Shown here: positions 6,328-17,109 of the stretch, piece by piece
How positions within the stretch are numbered: position 1 is the stretch's first letter
Layout: each line of letters opens with the position of its first letter
NCBI RefSeq assembly: GCF_023161965.1
Contig: NZ_JALNTY010000003.1
Coordinates: 11,271 to 43,270, forward strand
Origin: Anaerosoma tenue
GTDB lineage: Bacteria > Actinomycetota > Coriobacteriia > Anaerosomatales > Anaerosomataceae
Length of the DNA stretch: 32,000 nt
Direction of reading: 5' to 3'
The notes under the pieces: model-generated
What the model saw: only the letters and a program-made list of their open reading frames with translations
Database searches by the model: none
Told to the model about the DNA's origin: nothing
Translations under genes and position numbers: made by a program

Positions 6328-7110
6328 CTACACCAGCGGCGGGGCGTCCACGAAGCCGCCGTCAACGTGAAGCGTGGTGCCGGTGACGTAGGAGGACGCG
6401 TCGGAACACAGCCAGAGGCTCGCCTCGGCCACTTCCGACGGCTGGGCGAAGCGGCCCAGGTTGCTCATCTGCAGCGCATAGCGCTCGGGGTCGAGACCGA
6501 ACTGCGTGAGGGCGTTCCGCAGCATCGGGGTGTCGATGGCGCCCGGCGCCACCGCGTTCACCCTGATGTCATGCGGACCGTTCTCCATGGCCGCGGTCTT
6601 GGTCATGCCCACCACACCGGCCTTGGCGGCCGTGTACGCGAACGTGGTCATCTGCGGCCGGAAGCCGCTCACCGACGAGATGTTGACGATCGACCCGCCG
6701 TCGCCCTGGGCGATCAGCTGCCGGAGCTCGTACTTGAGGCACAGTGCGGTGCCCTTGAGGTCGATCGACATCAGCCGGTCGTAGTAGTCCTCGTCGAAGT
6801 CCGATATCAGGCCCTGGTCGGGCGTGAGGGCCGCGTTGTTCACCGCCACGTCGAGCCTGCCATAGGTCTCCACGGTCTTCGCGACCATCGCCTCGACCTC
6901 GGCGGACTTGGAGATGTCCACATACACGAACGTCGCGTCACCACCGTCGGCGACGATCTCCTCGGCCACCTTCGAGCCGGTCTCCCGGTTGAAGTCGGCC
7001 ACGACGACCTTGGCGCCCGACGCCGCGAACAGCCGCGCGGTCACTTCGCCCATGCCCTGACCCGCGCCGGTGACGATCGCGACCTTGCCCTCAAGTACTG
7101 GATATGCCAT
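6328..7110 (-). CDS. Short-chain dehydrogenase/reductase family oxidoreductase
   Basis: 260-aa product MAYPVLEGKVAIVTGAGQGMGEVTARLFAASGAKVVVADF... with TGxxxGxG, NNA, YxxxK (YTAAK) and C-terminal VTGTTLHVDGG. Confidence 0.93.
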   Translation of the reverse strand: MAYPVLEGKVAIVTGAGQGMGEVTARLFAASGAKVVVADFNRETGSKVAEEIVADGGDATFVYVDISKSAEVEAMVAKTVETYGRLDVAVNNAALTPDQGLISDFDEDYYDRLMSIDLKGTALCLKYELRQLIAQGDGGSIVNISSVSGFRPQMTTFAYTAAKAGVVGMTKTAAMENGPHDIRVNAVAPGAIDTPMLRNALTQFGLDPERYALQMSNLGRFAQPSEVAEASLWLCSDASSYVTGTTLHVDGGFVDAPPLV

Positions 7111-7178
7111 CAGTCGACCCCTTCCCATGTTTTCCGGGCGGCTGGATGAGTGCCGCCGAGCCAACACTGTAGGGGCCG

Positions 7179-7208
7179 AATGTTTGTAACTGCAAGTCAC
7201 AATGTTTG
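7179..7208. promoter_or_regulatory. Candidate operator/promoter region of the SDR gene
   Basis: 8-bp direct repeats AATGTTTG at 7179 and 7201 (22 bp start to start) flank the near-palindrome TGTAACT-GCA-AGTCACA (7185-7201). On the minus strand a TTGCAG-n18-TACAGT promoter-like pair overlaps. Confidence 0.4.
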
Positions 7209-7215
7209 ATACTTC

Positions 7216-7246
7216 TCGTATGGCGGGCGGTACACCCGCCATACGA
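7216..7246 (-). terminator. Inverted repeat downstream of acs
   Basis: Perfect 12-bp stem TCGTATGGCGGG / CCCGCCATACGA with 7-nt loop, just beyond the acs stop codon (7255-7257) in the direction of transcription; no clear U-tract. Confidence 0.6.
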
Positions 7247-9240: not shown

Positions 9241-9330
9241 ACCATGCTCCTCCCGGTCGCCTTGTATTCGTATTCCCCTTCTGCCCCCCTCTTGTCGTGT
9301 ACGATACGCATACCCGCTGTAAGGAACCTT

Positions 9331-10149
9331 GTGAGCACACTCACCCGAAAGTACGACGACCTGCGCAACCGCCTGGCCAACCTCGGCAGCGCGCTGGTCG
9401 CATACTCTGGCGGCGTAGACTCCACCTTGCTCGCCTTCACGGGACACGTGGTGCTCGGCGAGAAGTGCCTCGCGGTGATCGCCGTCTCCGACGTGCATCC
9501 CGCCTCCGAGATCGACGAGGCGCGGGCCACGGCGCGTTCGCTCGGCCTGAACACGTACGAGGTCGAGACGTACGAGCTCACCGACCCTCGCTTCCAGTCG
9601 AATCCCCCCGATCGCTGCTACTACTGCAAGGCCGAGATGTTCTCCCTGTTCCGGACCATCGCCACCACGCGAGGCATCTCATGGGTGCTCGACGGGACCA
9701 ACGCCGACGACCCGGGACAACACCGCCCCGGGCTGCGCGCGATCAGCGAGTTCGGTGTGGTGAGCCCGCTCCTGGATGTGGGCCTGCACAAGGACGAGAT
9801 CAGGGCGCTTTCCGAGCAGCTCGGCCTCCCCACGTGGGACAAGCCCTCAGGCGCGTGCCTCGCCACACGGTTCCCCTACGGCACACCTATCACCGAGGAG
9901 GACCTCGACCGTGTCGCGGTCGCGGAGGCTGCCGCACGGAGACTGGGGCTCAAGCAGGTACGCGTACGCTCGCACGGCGACATCGCCCGGATCGAGGTCG
10001 ACCCCTCGGAGATGGAGCGTGCCTTCGCGCTGCGCGAGCAGCTTGCGGCGGGTGTGCGCGCGGCGGGCTTCGAGTTCGTCACGCAGGATCTCGACGGGTA
10101 CCGGAGCGGCTCCCTCGACGAGGGACTCGAGGAGCCCCGGAGCGAGTAG
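9331..10149 (+). CDS. larE: LarE-family ATP-dependent sacrificial sulfur transferase (PP-loop)
   Basis: GTG start; PP-loop motif [53 protein letters not shown]; 272 aa. Confidence 0.9.
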
Positions 10150-12417: not shown

Positions 12418-12759
12418 CTACTCGCCGAGCTTGCGGAGGATGGTCTCCAGCAGCGACTCCATGGTGTCGAGTCGGCCGCGCAGCTCGGCGACCTCGAAGC
12501 GGATCTCGTCCAGTGCGGGATCGGATTCCTTCTCCTCCGAGACCTGCTCACCACGGGCGCGCGCCTCGAGGTCGAGCTTGAGCTTCTCTTTCTCCTCCTC
12601 GACCATCGCCGCGAGGCCGTCCACGAACGCATCCCGTCCACCCGTCATGCCCTCGGGCCCTTCGGCAATGCCCCGCCGGATCGCGGCCTTGATCTCCTCA
12701 TCCGCGGCCTCATGCGTGAAGAGCCACGTTGCGAAGAACCGCATCACGTCGTCCGTCAT
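12418..12759 (-). CDS. Small coiled-coil (phasin-like) protein, co-transcribed with the ABC1 kinase
   Basis: 113-aa ORF MTDDVMRFFATWLFTHEAADEEIKAAIRRGIAEGPEGM...EIRFEVAELRGRLDTMESLLETILRKLGE; 9-nt gap to the downstream kinase gene. Confidence 0.7.
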   Translation of the reverse strand: MTDDVMRFFATWLFTHEAADEEIKAAIRRGIAEGPEGMTGGRDAFVDGLAAMVEEEKEKLKLDLEARARGEQVSEEKESDPALDEIRFEVAELRGRLDTMESLLETILRKLGE

Positions 12760-12795
12760 GTCACGCCCCCCGTCGACCTAGATACTGTGTAATGA

Positions 12796-12824
12796 ATAGT
12801 ACCTCGCATTACGAGGTAATGCAA
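12796..12824 (-). promoter_or_regulatory. Sigma70-type promoter with palindromic operator in the spacer, upstream of the coiled-coil/ABC1-kinase operon
   Basis: Minus strand TTGCAT-n17-TACTAT. The spacer holds ACCTCG-CATTA-CGAGGT (12801-12817), overlapped by GCATTAC-GAG-GTAATGC (12806-12822). Predicted start lies about 30 nt before the ATG at 12759. Confidence 0.65.
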
Positions 12825-12851
12825 CCCGCCTTCCGGGATCGCCCGGTTGCT

Positions 12852-15248
12852 CTACTCGCCGCGGGCGGCTGCCGCTCCGCCCAGGAGACGCAGGCCGTTC
12901 GCGATCACCACGAGAGCGATGCCGGTGTCGGCGAAGACCGCCATCCACAGGGTGGCGTGACCCGTCATCGCGAGCGCGAGGAACACCGCCTTGACGGCCA
13001 GCGACAGGGCGATGTTCTGCCTCACGATGCGCATCGTCCTGCGCCCGAGGCCGATGAACCGCGGGAGGGCCGACAGGTCGTCTCCCAGAAGCGCGACGTC
13101 GGCGGTCTCCAGCGCGGTCTGGCTCGCCGCGGCTCCCATCGCGATGCCGATGTCGGCGCTCGCGAGGGCAGGGGCGTCGTTGATGCCGTCGCCCACCACC
13201 GCGACCGGTCCGTACGCCTCGCGCAGCTCGCCCACGGCATCGGTCTTCCCTTCGGGAAGAAGACGTGCGCGGTACTCGGAGATGCCCGTCATCTCCGCTA
13301 CGCGAGCTGCCGCGGCGGGGTTGTCACCCGTGAGCATGACCACGTGCGCCACCCCGCCCAGGCGAAGGTCCGTGACCGCACGCGATGCGTCGGAGCGCAC
13401 CGCATCGGCAACGCCCAGCAAGCCGATCGCACGCATGTCGGAGCCGTCACCGGTCGCCACGACGAGCACGGTGAGACCGCGCTCCTCCAGCGCCAGCGCC
13501 CCCGCATCCGTCTCGCCCGACATCACGCCGAGCTCCCCGGCATACGCGGCGCTGCCGACCGAGACACGCACGCCGTCCACCTGCGCGGACACGCCCTGCC
13601 CGGGCGTCTCGACGACCCCGCTCACCGCTTCCGAAGCAGGCGCCGCGGCGGCCGTCACGGCAGCCGCCAGCGGATGATTGGAGTGCGCCTCCACGGCGGC
13701 CGCCAGGGATGCCACCCGTTCGACCGGTTCGTGGCCCAGCGCGATCGTCTCGATCACCACCGGGCGCCCCTCGGTAAGGGTGCCCGTCTTGTCGAACGCC
13801 ACCACCCCGACGTGAGCGGCGCGTTCGAGGAAGGCGCCCCCCTTCACCAGCACGCCGTCCCTGGTGGCCCGCGCGATCGCGGAGACGATGGCCACGGGCG
13901 TGGAGACCACCAGCGCGCACGGACACGAGATCACCAAGAGCGTGAGCGCGCGGTAGACCCATTCGCGCCACCCCTCGATCCCCACCCACCCCGGGCTGAG
14001 TCCCCCGAGGAACGGCCCGCCGATGGCGACCGCCGCCGCCGCGACCATCACGATCGGGGTGTAGACGCGACTGAACCTGTCCACGAACCGCTGCACGGGC
14101 GCACGGCTCGCCTGGGCCGCTTCGACCAGGTGGACGATGCGAGCAATCGTGGTCTCGGCTGCCGGAGCCGTGGTCACGATCGCCACAAGGCCGGAGGTGT
14201 TGAGCGTGCCCGCATAGACGGTGTCGCCGGAACGCTTGTCCACAGGCAGCGACTCGCCCGTGATGGGCGACTCGTCGAAGGCCGACACACCCTCGGCCAC
14301 CACTCCGTCCAGCGGTACACGCTCACCAGGACGCACCACGATCGTGCCCCCCACAGGCACATCGGCAGGCGCGACCTCGATCTCGCCCTCATCCATCCGC
14401 AGACGCGCACGCTCGGGCGCGAGTGACATGAGCTCCCCGATCGAGCGCCTGGTGCGCGCGACCGACCGCGACTCCAGCATGCCGCCCAACGCAAACAGGA
14501 CGATCACGGTGGCCCCTTCGCCCCACTCGCCCAGCGCGGCGGCGCCACTCACCGCAAGCGTCATGAGCACGTTCATGTCGAGCGTACGCGCCATGAGCGA
14601 CGTCACCGCGCGTCGCCACACCAGTGAGCCACCGACGATGATCGCCAGCGCGAACGCACCCACCGAGGGTACTTCCGACGCTAGACCCCCGAGAAGCCAT
14701 CCGAGCACGAGGAGGATCGACGCGATGCCCACGCGGATCTCGGTCCGGTTCTTCACCCACCACGAGACAGCCGGGAGCGGCGGTCCGCCCTCGGAATCGA
14801 CCGCCTCGATACCGTGACCGGCGCCGACCACCGCGGCAACCGCGGCGCCGCGCGGATCCGCTTCGGGGTCGTACTCCATGAGCAGCAGCCCGCTCGCGAA
14901 GTTGACGTCGGCGGATACGACGCCGGGGATCTGCCGTACGGACGCGGCCACGGTCCGCGCGCAGTCAGGTCAATCGAGCCCTTCGAGCCGGTAGACCGCG
15001 TGCCCCACGACGCCTGCCTCGTCCAGCGCCAGGCGTTCCACCAACTCCTCGAGCGACCTCTCCTCAAGGGACTCAGGATCGTACGTCACGGTGAGGGTGC
15101 CGCCCTCGAGGTCGCAGCGCGTTTCGAGAACGCCGGGCACGTCATCGAGCCCCCGGCACACCCGCCCGGCGCACCCGGCGCAGTACCGCGGCCCCGGCAG
15201 CAGCCGTGTCAGGTCGAACGAGCGTGTCGTCATGTGCGGCACGCCCAC
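12852..15248 (-). CDS. P1B-type (Zn/Cd/Pb class) heavy-metal translocating ATPase with two N-terminal HMA domains; in-frame TGA at 14970-14972 probably encodes selenocysteine (UxxC metal-binding motif)
   Basis: ORFs 14970..15248 and 12852..14951 are in the same frame, separated only by TGA plus six sense codons. The joined product reads ...YCAGCAGRVCRGLDDVPGVLETRCD...HAVYRLEGLD[TGA]PDCARTVAASVRQIPGVVSADVNFASGLLLMEYDP..., a continuous HMA fold. ATPase motifs: SCPCALV, DKTGTLTEG, HPLA, GDGINDAPALA, and QNIALSLAVK...ADTG typical of ZntA/CadA. Exact start uncertain (GTG 15248, GTG 15242 or ATG 15233). Confidence 0.88.
14935..14961 (-). promoter_or_regulatory. Candidate bacterial SECIS hairpin directly 3' of the in-frame UGA
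   Basis: mRNA after UGA: CCUGACUGCGCGCGGACCGUGGCCGCGUCCGUACGG. GCGGAC (14958-14953) pairs with GUCCGU (14943-14938), plus two outer pairs (14961/14935 and 14960/14936) across a 1x1 mismatch. The 9-nt loop CGUGGCCGC starts 18 nt after the UGA and has G at loop position 2. An alternative GCGCGG/CCGCGU fold also exists. Confidence 0.55.
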
Positions 15249-15252
15249 CGCC

Positions 15253-16050
15253 TCACGCAGCGTCCCTGCGCCGGAACACGACCACTGCCGCCACGGCGGA
15301 TACCAGCGCCACGCCGCCGTACAGCCACCACGCCGCCGCGTCCACCGGGTCGCCGTTGATGATCTTGCCCGGTTGCCAGTAGCTCACGATGTTGATCGGG
15401 TCGAAGAGCTCGGCGGCTTCCGAGAAGTTCGATACGAGGTCGGCGATCCACAACACCACGAGCACGCCGGCGGCGATGGCACCGGGTTTGCCGGCGCCTC
15501 TGAAGATCGCCGACAACATGAGCGTGAAGCCACCCACGGCCAACATGAAGAGCAGGCCGAAGGCGAACAGCGTCCAGAACGTGTCCCAGGGCAGGTCGAT
15601 GTCGTACTTGGGCCCGAACACCATGATGGGCACGAAGCTCGCCGCGGCCAGCGCGAGCGAGTACCCCACCATCACTGCGATGCGGGTAATGGCCAGCCGT
15701 GCGCGCGAGACAGGCTGCGACAGCACGAATTCCATCGTGCCCTCGGCTATCTCACCGGCGAACGCCTTGGCGGAGTAGATGATCAGCGCCGACGCGACGA
15801 TCACCATCCACATGAGTCCCAGATACTCCGTCTGGAAGTACCCCCCGAGCGACGCGAAGGACACCTCCGTGCCGCCGAAGATCGCCAGCACCTCGGCCGG
15901 CATCGTCTCCACGAGCTCGGCGTACTCGTTACCGCCGATCTCGGGATAGAACCAGGTCATCATCCAGGAGTACAGGACGAGGCCGAACGAGAACCAGAAT
16001 ATGGACACGCGGTTCTGGTGGAGCGTGCCCCGCAACAGCGTCCAACTCAT
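15253..16050 (-). CDS. ABC-2 type transporter permease
   Basis: 265-aa protein with about 6 hydrophobic segments, MSWTLLRGTLHQNRVSIFWFSFGLVLYSW...SAKAFAGEIAEGTMEFVLSQPVSRARLAITR; overlaps its cognate ATPase gene by 4 nt. Confidence 0.9.
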   Translation of the reverse strand: MSWTLLRGTLHQNRVSIFWFSFGLVLYSWMMTWFYPEIGGNEYAELVETMPAEVLAIFGGTEVSFASLGGYFQTEYLGLMWMVIVASALIIYSAKAFAGEIAEGTMEFVLSQPVSRARLAITRIAVMVGYSLALAAASFVPIMVFGPKYDIDLPWDTFWTLFAFGLLFMLAVGGFTLMLSAIFRGAGKPGAIAAGVLVVLWIADLVSNFSEAAELFDPINIVSYWQPGKIINGDPVDAAAWWLYGGVALVSAVAAVVVFRRRDAA

Positions 16051-16973
16051 CGGACCTCCCCTCCCTCTTCGTTCGCATGCGTTGCATCATCACTGCGGTA
16101 GAACTCCAGGAACACGTCCTCCAGGCTTGCATGCTGGATACGGATGTCGCTGACCTTCCGGCTTGCGATGCGCTTGAGCACGCCGTCGATCGCGTCGCCA
16201 CGCACGCGCGCCGCCAGGCTCTGGTCGGAGACGGCCACCACGCTGTCCACGCCCGGCAGCTCCCCCAGCAGCGAGGCCTCCACGGGGTCGGCGAACGTCA
16301 CCTCGACCTCGCGCAGCCGCTTGCCAAGCAGCGACTTCACGCCCTCCTCGGCCACCAGGCGACCCGAGCGGATGATGCCGACCTTGTCGCACACCCGCTC
16401 CACCTCGGACAACACGTGGCTCGAGAGGAACACCGTGCGTCCCGCGGCCACCCGCTCCTCGATGACCGAGTACACCGCCTCCTGGTTGAGCGGGTCGAGA
16501 CCGCTCGTGGGCTCGTCGAGTATGAGCAGCTCGGGATCGTGTGCCATGCCGAGGATCAGGGCGAGCTTCTGCTTGTTGCCCTTCGACAGCTCCTTGACCC
16601 GCCTCGACGGGTCCAGATCGAACCGCTCAAGCAACTCGGCGGTGAGCGGGCCTTTGGTCCCGCGGAATCCGGCGACGTAATCGAGATGCCAGCGGCCGGT
16701 CTCCTTCTCGTACAAACGTACCTCGCCCGCCACATATCCGATCCGACGCCTGAGAGCCGCGCCGTCGAGGGTCACCCGCTCACCCAGCACGGACGATGAT
16801 CCCGCCGTAGGCTTGAGCATACCGAGCAGGCACCTGATGGTCGTGGTCTTGCCCGCGCCGTTGGGCCCAAGGAATCCATAGACCGCGCCCTGCGGGACGG
16901 CCATCGTGAGGTCCTCGACACCCCGCGCCTTGCCGTAGTACTTCGTGAGCCCACTCGTGCTGATGACGTCCAT
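16047..16973 (-). CDS. ABC transporter ATP-binding protein (DrrA/CcmA-like)
   Basis: Walker A GPNGAGKTTTIR, signature LSKGNKQKLALI, Walker B LLILDEPTSGLDP, H-loop SSHVLSEVERVCD; 308 aa. Confidence 0.95.
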   Translation of the reverse strand: MDVISTSGLTKYYGKARGVEDLTMAVPQGAVYGFLGPNGAGKTTTIRCLLGMLKPTAGSSSVLGERVTLDGAALRRRIGYVAGEVRLYEKETGRWHLDYVAGFRGTKGPLTAELLERFDLDPSRRVKELSKGNKQKLALILGMAHDPELLILDEPTSGLDPLNQEAVYSVIEERVAAGRTVFLSSHVLSEVERVCDKVGIIRSGRLVAEEGVKSLLGKRLREVEVTFADPVEASLLGELPGVDSVVAVSDQSLAARVRGDAIDGVLKRIASRKVSDIRIQHASLEDVFLEFYRSDDATHANEEGGEVR

Positions 16974-17109
16974 GCAGCAGCCTCCTTGCGGCCCTCGGCA
17001 CACCGCGGCACTCCGTGCCTGCGATGGGACGCATACCATCCTAACGCTCCGGGACCGAGTGAGCGACGTGGTTGTGGGGACATACTAGACAATCGCCCCG
17101 CTGAAGAAG

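Follow-up and report, generated by a model that had tools for sequence, protein, structure and literature searches.

A heavy-metal ATPase gene of Anaerosoma tenue with a conserved in-frame UGA that very probably encodes selenocysteine

In Anaerosoma tenue, a member of the Coriobacteriia (order Anaerosomatales), a gene for a putative heavy-metal exporter of the P1B ATPase family is interrupted by an in-frame UGA codon. We studied this gene in a 32,000-nucleotide (nt) stretch of contig NZ_JALNTY010000003.1 (assembly GCF_023161965.1), which we will call the window and to which all coordinates refer. The gene is on the minus strand (Table 1). As judged from comparisons of sequences, the UGA very probably encodes selenocysteine (Sec).

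A single reading frame runs from the ATG at 15233 to the TAG at 12852-12854, and its sole interruption is the TGA at 14972-14970. Two open reading frames (ORFs), 15248..14970 and 14951..12852, share this frame and are separated only by the TGA and six codons, CCT GAC TGC GCG CGG ACC (PDCART). If the TGA is read through, the joined product is ...GHAVYRLEGLD-[UGA]-PDCARTVAASVRQIPGVV... The likely start is ATG 15233 (MTTRSF...), which matches the gene call in L086, a contig whose copy of the gene is 97.5% identical. (L and P numbers are our labels for loci and proteins.)

The upstream ORF contains one HMA domain (HMA1), and the TGA lies within a second (HMA2), at the first Cys of the CxxC motif. 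With Cys in place of the stop, HMA2 matches positions 1-61 of the 62 positions of PF00403, at 38.2 bits (the cut-off is 24.8 bits). If translation begins at the GTG that gene callers use, then positions 1-19 are missing, only positions 20-61 match, and the score of 18.6 bits is below the cut-off. So, HMA2 is complete only if the UGA is read through.

The HMM scores and motifs predict that the gene encodes an exporter of the Zn/Cd/Pb class (P1B-2). The protein scores 559.3 bits against TIGR01525 (P1B heavy-metal ATPase; cut-off 346.25) and 492.2 bits against TIGR01512 (the cadmium family; cut-off 313.5), while the copper model TIGR01511 gives 364.8 bits, which is under its cut-off of 397. TGES, CPC, DKTGT, HP, and GDGINDAP are all found, so the ATPase core is whole. 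The transmembrane CPC occurs together with the Lys of AVK and the Asp of ADTG, as in P1B-2 pumps. In ZntA and CadA, the transmembrane Lys and Asp, along with the Asp of the HMA loop, have a role in selectivity for divalent metals (Zn, Cd, or Pb). The top matches in NCBIfam are PRK11033 and P_type_ZntA, and the scores are below those expected of ZntA equivalogs (574.6 bits instead of 1005 for PRK11033, and 508.9 bits instead of 1240 for NF033775). The protein appears to be ZntA-like, yet not an ortholog of ZntA from Escherichia coli.

Both sides of the TGA look like protein-coding sequence. The G+C content at third codon positions is 0.86 upstream and 0.88 downstream. Across the 70 codons upstream of the TGA, the median ratio of nonsynonymous to synonymous substitution rates (dN/dS) is 0.20 (54 pairs). 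In the six-codon stretch that links the TGA to the GTG, nearly all of the variation is at third positions (CCC/CCT/CCG, GAC/GAT, and TGC/TGT). Because the amino acids PDCART are kept while synonymous sites vary, these six codons must be translated. Both flanks of the UGA are under purifying selection. We also scanned the window and six 22-kb loci for in-frame stops that have coding signal on either side, and this TGA was the only convincing site; the other candidates were artefacts of antisense or adjacent genes. Of the 15 confident genes in the window, 5 end in TGA (glnD and the ABC-2 permease are among them) and 10 end in TAG, so the genetic code is standard here.

A first-pass annotation, which was made from the letters of the window alone, had proposed most of this: two ORFs in one frame, a stop at the first Cys of the second HMA motif with an ordinary CAGC upstream, an intact ATPase core of the Zn/Cd class, and a code that is not globally reassigned. 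Our analyses agree on each point. As it also foresaw, the protein is cut short at the GTG in public gene calls, which lack both CxxC regions. It gave 15248 as the outer end of the upstream ORF, and the GTG there is only the limit of that ORF, not the likely start of the gene.

Table 1. Features of the pump gene and its neighbors. Residues are numbered from ATG 15233. Hairpin nucleotides are numbered from the U of the UGA (nt 1).
Feature	Position	Strand	Notes
Full-length gene	12852..15233	-	793 sense codons including the UGA (residue 88), then a TAG stop; HMA1, HMA2 (UxxC), P1B-2 ATPase
HMA domain 1, residues 18-67	15033..15182	-	PF00403, 44.2 bits on the 87-aa upstream ORF
C18-A-G-C21 motif of HMA1	15171-15182	-	Ordinary Cys form
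HMA domain 2, residues 80-140	14814..14996	-	Spans the TGA; metal loop D87-U88-P-D-C91; PF00403
In-frame UGA, proposed Sec codon, residue 88	14970..14972	-	Next base is C (UGA-C); invariant GAU before
SECIS-like hairpin, nt 14-36	14937..14959	-	Folds, frozen synonymous sites, stem swap, covariance model
Apical loop of the hairpin, nt 21-29	14944-14952	-	Begins C21 G22 U23 G24
GTG (Val95)	14949..14951	-	Gene callers' start of a 699-aa "ATPase"; within the hairpin loop (G22 U23 G24)
Transmembrane and catalytic core of P1B ATPase	12852..14813	-	
Core motif TGES	14250-14261	-	
Core motif CPC	13917-13925	-	
Core motif DKTGT	13779-13793	-	
Core motif HP	13671-13676	-	
Core motif GDGINDAP	13170-13193	-	
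Lys in AVK	12990-12998	-	
Asp in ADTG	12921-12932	-	
ABC ATPase	16047-17039	-	Pfam; directly upstream
ABC-2 permease	15253-16050	-	Pfam; stop is 20 nt before the pump's ATG
Terminator-like hairpin TACCTCG-TAATG-CGAGGTA with T-rich tail	12800..12818	-	34 nt after the TAG; consensus scan
Conserved 113-aa protein	12418-12759	-	No Pfam match; directly downstream of the pump

Conservation of the UGA among relatives

Using the joined sequence as the query of a protein search, we considered the best 120 homologs. Of these, 75 lack an HMA domain; almost all of them are 675-712 amino acids long and cover 84-88% of the query. These short homologs are 56-98% identical to the query and are mostly labelled as metagenome-assembled genomes (MAGs) of Coriobacteriia. 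The remaining 45 homologs are full-length and include HMA.

We read the DNA for six of the short homologs: L086, which is from an independent ENA assembly, and L001-L005, which are from JGI, NCBI, and ENA contigs. L086 has TGA at the identical codon, and so do L001-L005, which are syntenic with the window and encode ATPases with 57-68% protein identity. All six share the context GLD-TGA-PDCARTV, and in all six the gene callers have split the gene into an upstream ORF and an ATPase of ~695 amino acids. The upstream ORF is an HMA ORF of 87-97 amino acids in five of the six; in L003, it is only a brief N-terminal stretch before the TGA.

Two broader scans gave similar results. A metagenome scan that was seeded with the protein alignment returned 80 loci. 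Of the 18 closest loci, 14 have TGA at this codon, down to ~49% identity, and TGC or TGT is present in L013, L016, L018, L022, and every more distant locus that bears the motif. Among unique relatives that were found by protein similarity, 19 of 19 carry TGA. We also scanned one genome per species with a DNA pattern, which fixed nt -3 to +24. Sixty-two species-representative genomes carry the element (for instance, OY969691.1, OY968780.1, OW818687.1, and GCA_040961035.1), and all of them read GLD-U-PDC[A/T]RTV. Nearly all of these genomes are MAGs of the Coriobacteriia type; one bears the label Anaerosomatales, and three are assembled to the chromosome level.

Full-length homologs with Cys at this position read GLDCPDCARTV (P0027, P0080, P0084, P0087, P0115, and others), and together with the four metagenome loci with TGC or TGT they pair Sec forms with Cys forms. 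The first-pass annotation had turned on how the codon aligns to relatives, and the answer is conserved TGA in close relatives and TGC or TGT in more distant homologs. That every close relative that we examined carries TGA at this very codon is far beyond chance.

A single base change turns TGC into TGA, which could have arisen as a sequencing or assembly error or as a recent nonsense mutation in a decaying pseudogene. But the TGA is present in independent assemblies and in dozens of species with 50-98% identity, there are no further stops or frameshifts, the dN/dS upstream is 0.20, and the core is intact. These explanations, which have next to no chance of being correct, are already refuted, barring a systematic artefact that is common to those assemblies. 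A read error, which the first-pass annotation had set out as a way for its reading to fail, is ruled out by the independent assemblies.

Some of the loci with the element have surprising taxon labels (L131, L136, L095, L100, L105, and others). The locus of L131, "Firmicutes bacterium UBA6811," is 98% identical to the window, and L136, "Rhodocyclaceae bacterium UBA2250," is 99.8% identical to L114, "Actinobacteria bacterium UBA2184." Other contigs with the element are labelled "Aeromicrobium sp." or "uncultured Eubacteriales." These mismatches are likely to be binning or labelling errors in public MAGs.

The domain architecture also varies. Some Sec forms lack HMA1 and begin 20-40 codons before the UGA (L003, L090, L093, L094, L096, L099, L100, L109, L111, L120, L124, L126, L132, L138, L139, L141-L143, and L148). 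Cys forms have the same two architectures (P0115 is an example). Having one or two HMA domains does not track the classes of stems that are described below.

A conserved hairpin after the UGA

Bacterial selenocysteine insertion sequences (SECIS) are hairpins in the coding region, directly after the UGA, and the first-pass annotation had suggested looking for one here. A conserved hairpin does follow the UGA. Its first trace is in the synonymous sites. We computed the codon entropy at four- and six-fold degenerate codons for the 19 unique Sec-form sequences that were found by protein similarity. The mean entropy is 0.37 bit for codons +4 to +10 (GCG CGG ACC GTG ... TCC) and 1.40 bit for 60 comparable, conserved codons from the rest of the gene (permutation p < 1e-5). 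ACC and GTG never vary, and 16 of 18 Sec forms have TCC. In the Cys-form relatives, the codons at the hairpin positions are varied.

When folded one by one, every Sec-form sequence forms the hairpin. The stem is C16GGAC20:G30UCCG34, usually with G15-U35 added (5-7 base pairs), and it encloses a 9-nt loop. G22 in the loop, which is the 22nd nucleotide counted from the U of the UGA, is invariant.

The stem comes in two classes, into which we sorted 71 unique sequences of 45 nt. Class I (57 of 71) has the CGGAC/GUCCG stem, with CGG at nt 16-18 and the 9-nt loop. Class II (14 of 71) has CGCAC/GUGCG instead, and the 3' arm has moved to G26UGCG30, which leaves a 5-nt loop. Codon 25-27 in class II is AGT, GGT, or TGT, so the amino acids differ, but it is always nGU. 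Conversely, codon 31-33 is invariant TCC in class I and is free in class II. Each form of the 5' arm always occurs with its own form of the 3' arm, which amounts to a compensatory swap. Pair 15:31 in class II varies as well: it is G-U in 7 sequences, A-U in 4, C-G in 1, U-A in 1, and a mismatch in one, a result that 11 of 500 shuffles equal. For class I, pairing holds in 88% of cells, versus 20-45% if the partner is slid.

A covariance model that was built on class I only gives similar results. It scores the class I Sec forms at 59-73 bits, the class II forms, which it had not seen, at 34-46 bits, and the Cys forms at 25.6 bits or less. It fits the class II sequences of L003 and L012 by deleting 4 loop nucleotides.

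We take G22 and U23 to correspond to G23 and U24 of the SECIS of E. coli fdhF. Otherwise, the sequence is unrelated to fdhF-type elements, and the loop differs, with 9 nt, or 5 nt in class II. Published bacterial SECIS have a stem of 6-8 base pairs and a conserved G in the loop about 20 nt after the UGA (PMC4605307). The loop G in the window matches this description, and the stem is within or just under the published range.

An alternative is that the TGA is a true stop. The locus would then encode an 87-residue HMA1 protein and a truncated pump that is re-initiated at the GTG, 18 nt downstream of the stop, and this split would have been conserved. Such a split would agree with the gene callers, which all annotate two genes, and would give a role to the invariant GTG. 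Also, P1B pumps such as ZntA and CadA tolerate the loss of N-terminal domains. But a split would not account for the stretch from the stop to the GTG, in which the six encoded amino acids are conserved while synonymous sites vary, which indicates that this stretch is translated. HMA2 would lose strand beta-1 and the metal loop, and would fall under the Pfam cut-off, yet the rest of the domain is conserved. The stop falls exactly on the Cys codon of the Cys-form homologs. And there is no Shine-Dalgarno-like sequence: the sole candidate, GGA, is lost in class II. We considered a Shine-Dalgarno sequence or re-initiation as the cause of the conservation of ACCGTG, and we rejected this because of the loss of GGA and because conservation at synonymous sites extends 3' of the GTG (to TCC). 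Overall, a conserved split is very unlikely.

Conservation also reaches 5' of the UGA, at 14973-14978 on the minus strand (CUC GAU UGA CC), which the downstream hairpin does not explain. Immediately before the UGA, 19 of 19 Sec forms from the unbiased set have GAT, and Cys forms mostly have GAC-TGC. Elsewhere in the gene, Asp is encoded by GAC 76 times and by GAT 14 times. One codon further upstream, 17 of 18 sequences have CTC (0.31 bit). This conserved context may tune termination versus Sec insertion.

What the UGA encodes

We are confident, if short of certain, that the gene encodes one 793-residue P1B-2 export ATPase with two N-terminal HMA domains, and that Sec, inserted via SelB and a SECIS, is the first ligand of the metal loop of HMA2 (D-U-P-D-C). 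We infer the identity of the residue, the reading of the hairpin by SelB, and the metal chemistry. When a ribosome arrives at the UGA, the hairpin 11-33 nt downstream, with its stem of 5-7 base pairs and G22 and U23 in the loop, would serve as a bacterial SECIS. It would recruit SelB-GTP-Sec-tRNA(Sec), and Sec would be inserted instead of termination. In the cytosolic HMA2 domain, a site with selenolate, thiolate, and carboxylate ligands would then capture soft divalent metals, and HMA2 would pass them to the CPC transport site in the membrane, or would regulate that site. Sec would presumably improve the capture or the hand-over of soft metals.

Several observations weigh against Sec insertion. 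The hairpin is no more stable than shuffled sequence (z = +0.95 and +1.28), although such z-scores are uninformative in DNA with 67.5% G+C. Rfam has no SECIS match, either in the window at the gathering threshold or around the site at E <= 10; there is no match to tRNA-Sec either, and the only matches at E <= 10 are chance hits to miRNAs and snoRNAs. For the mixed alignment of 19 sequences, RNAalifold favored another weak structure, a helix with a triloop. We rejected that helix because it does not explain why class I always keeps TCC at nt 31-33 while class II varies there. Most pairs of the stem are invariant, so the covariation consists of one stem swap and one variable pair, and the swap between classes may have happened only once in evolution. 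For the 62 genomes from the pattern scan, the 5' arm was fixed by the pattern, so only the 3' arms are independent evidence. Finally, the literature that we found on the family of ATPase selenoproteins with UxxC reports no experimentally verified member.

The machinery for Sec is also missing from the DNA at hand: selA, selB, selD, and tRNA-Sec were not seen in the 32-kb window or in ~1 Mb of flanking sequence from relatives (10 kb or less each), where none are expected. The window contains neither a tRNA gene nor an Rfam family at the gathering score, and ARAGORN found no real tRNA in the window and 83 loci. Its one candidate, a 96-nt "tRNA-Arg(CCG)" at 5723-5818 of L121, is a false positive: it is a simple repeat of GGCTCC(GGG) and has no support from Rfam. 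(The repeat would encode a stretch rich in Gly and Ser.) Local tblastn with SelA, SelB, and SelD from E. coli (approximate query sequences) against 149 sequences (~1 Mb) found no match.

The UGA might instead be recoded to another amino acid, which would give a full-length pump without selenium. In some bacteria, UGA is recoded to Cys by a non-canonical tRNA-Cys and SelB. Here, the hairpin and the weak UGA-C context might allow Cys to be inserted by a SelB-type factor with a tRNA-Cys-like tRNA that has a UCA anticodon, or near-cognate tRNAs (for Trp, Cys, or Arg) might read through. All of the evidence for read-through fits this explanation equally well, and so does not having observed the Sec machinery in the window and the ~1 Mb of flanks. 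But Cys could be obtained simply by TGC, as in neighboring lineages, and the retention of the UGA and the hairpin in at least 62 species implies a benefit that is specific to the recoded residue. Also, the geometry of the hairpin is that of a SelB-type SECIS, and there are precedents for UxxC selenoproteins both in HMA domains and in ZntA-type ATPases. This makes recoding to a residue other than Sec improbable.

A further proposal, to which we assign a small probability, is that the UGA is a selenium-dependent switch with two outputs, which would couple metal efflux to the selenium supply. With selenium, the cell would make the full-length pump, with a high-affinity Sec domain for sensing or delivery. 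Without selenium, termination would free the 87-residue HMA1, which would resemble a metallochaperone, and an active pump that lacks the domain would be made by re-initiation at the invariant GTG, 18 nt downstream.

As to whether Sec could be made in this lineage, some other Coriobacteriia have been documented to decode Sec: Eggerthella lenta, Slackia heliotrinireducens, and Coriobacteriaceae bacterium JC110 (supplement of PMC5029168). This makes Sec decoding plausible for the lineage of the window, but it is not proof. Our literature search for Sec in OPB41 or Anaerosomatales found nothing relevant. If the UGA does encode Sec, then this implies Sec decoding in a lineage of Anaerosomatales-type Coriobacteriia for which it was unreported in the literature that we found.

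Gene neighborhood and known selenoproteins

The order of genes is conserved: ABC ATPase, ABC-2 permease, the pump gene, the 113-aa protein, and UbiB, followed by acs, glnD, glnB, and amt. The ABC ATPase, the permease, and the pump gene are also in this order in L001, L002, L005, and L086, and the ABC pair is probably co-transcribed with the pump gene. In L004, an ArsR/SmtB-type regulator (HTH_5, at 9306-9692 of that locus) precedes the HMA ORF instead of the ABC pair, and neither is present in L003. These arrangements suggest an operon that is regulated by metals and whose upstream partner varies.

Downstream of the pump gene, the terminator-like hairpin (Table 1) probably marks the end of the transcription unit; the consensus scan found 1 site, with 0.7 expected by chance. 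The region between the pump's stop and the gene for the 113-aa protein (12760-12851, minus strand) is unusually A+T-rich for a genome with 67.5% G+C. It contains an imperfect inverted repeat (GCAACCG...GGGTTGC) and then the perfect palindrome of the terminator-like hairpin. The palindrome (12818-12800) could alternatively be an operator or the promoter of the next gene. The 113-aa protein has a C-terminal half that is rich in Glu and Lys and is probably a coiled coil, and a protein of 108-117 amino acids is encoded at the same position in 7 of 7 relatives' loci. Between acs and glnD, the window and L086 encode a short-chain dehydrogenase (6328-7242, minus strand, in the window). It is not at that position in L001, L002, L004, or L005, which are otherwise syntenic, so it is a small lineage-specific insertion.

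The first-pass annotation implied more novelty than is warranted, as heavy-metal ATPase selenoproteins with UxxC had already been predicted in other bacteria. A predicted family of selenoprotein ATPases belongs to COG2217 (ZntA) and TIGR01525 and has UxxC, with ABB15669.1 as an example (PMC1976440). The family was also seen in the Global Ocean Sampling (GOS) metagenome (PMC2398784), was counted in 2016 at 32 genes from 25 organisms (PMC5029168), and is listed in reviews from 2022 (PMC9312934) and 2026 (PMC13188914). The window protein fits the definition of this family in those two reviews (COG2217/TIGR01525 with UxxC). So, it is not a new class of selenoprotein; it belongs to a known predicted family and will not surprise specialists. 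The literature that we found on these ATPases names no member from Coriobacteriia.

What we add is a large clade from Coriobacteriia, a well-resolved SECIS with two registers, and proof that public gene calls systematically split the gene. At every locus that we examined, the annotation is in error, with an "HMA protein" and a truncated ATPase. Here, a deeply conserved Sec would bind metal instead of catalyzing redox reactions, and it would do so in a pump that is well understood and whose sister lineages have the Cys form. As a natural system, this is well suited to studies of the advantage of Se over S in the binding of soft metals (lower pKa, faster exchange, and higher affinity for Cd, Hg, or Pb).

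As compared to Cys-type P1B-2 pumps such as ZntA and CadA, the window protein has the same CPC, Lys (in AVK), and Asp (in ADTG), and as in ZntA, an Asp precedes the first ligand of the HMA loop (GxDCxxC). Unlike in ZntA and CadA, that first ligand is encoded by UGA instead of being Cys, and there is an additional domain, HMA1. Selenoproteins that consist of a stand-alone HMA domain are also known: a MerP-like protein (PMC2398784) and NF041115 (UxxU metal-binding (seleno)protein), which residues 79-130 match below threshold (38.9 bits; cut-off 95). They share the ferredoxin-like HMA domain with Sec in place of Cys in the CxxC metal loop. But they are small and stand-alone, and NF041115 has two Sec, while the domain in the window is part of a pump and has only one predicted Sec.

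The closest comparison is with the UxxC ATPase family itself; for ABB15669.1, the likeness is by the description of the family. The known members are heavy-metal P1B ATPases with a predicted Sec as the first residue of UxxC, have Cys homologs, were predicted by comparative genomics, and are mis-annotated, and all of this is also true of the protein from A. tenue. Unlike them, it represents a clade of Anaerosomatales-type Coriobacteriia MAGs that comprises at least 62 species and has a conserved SECIS of its own, with two variants of the stem.

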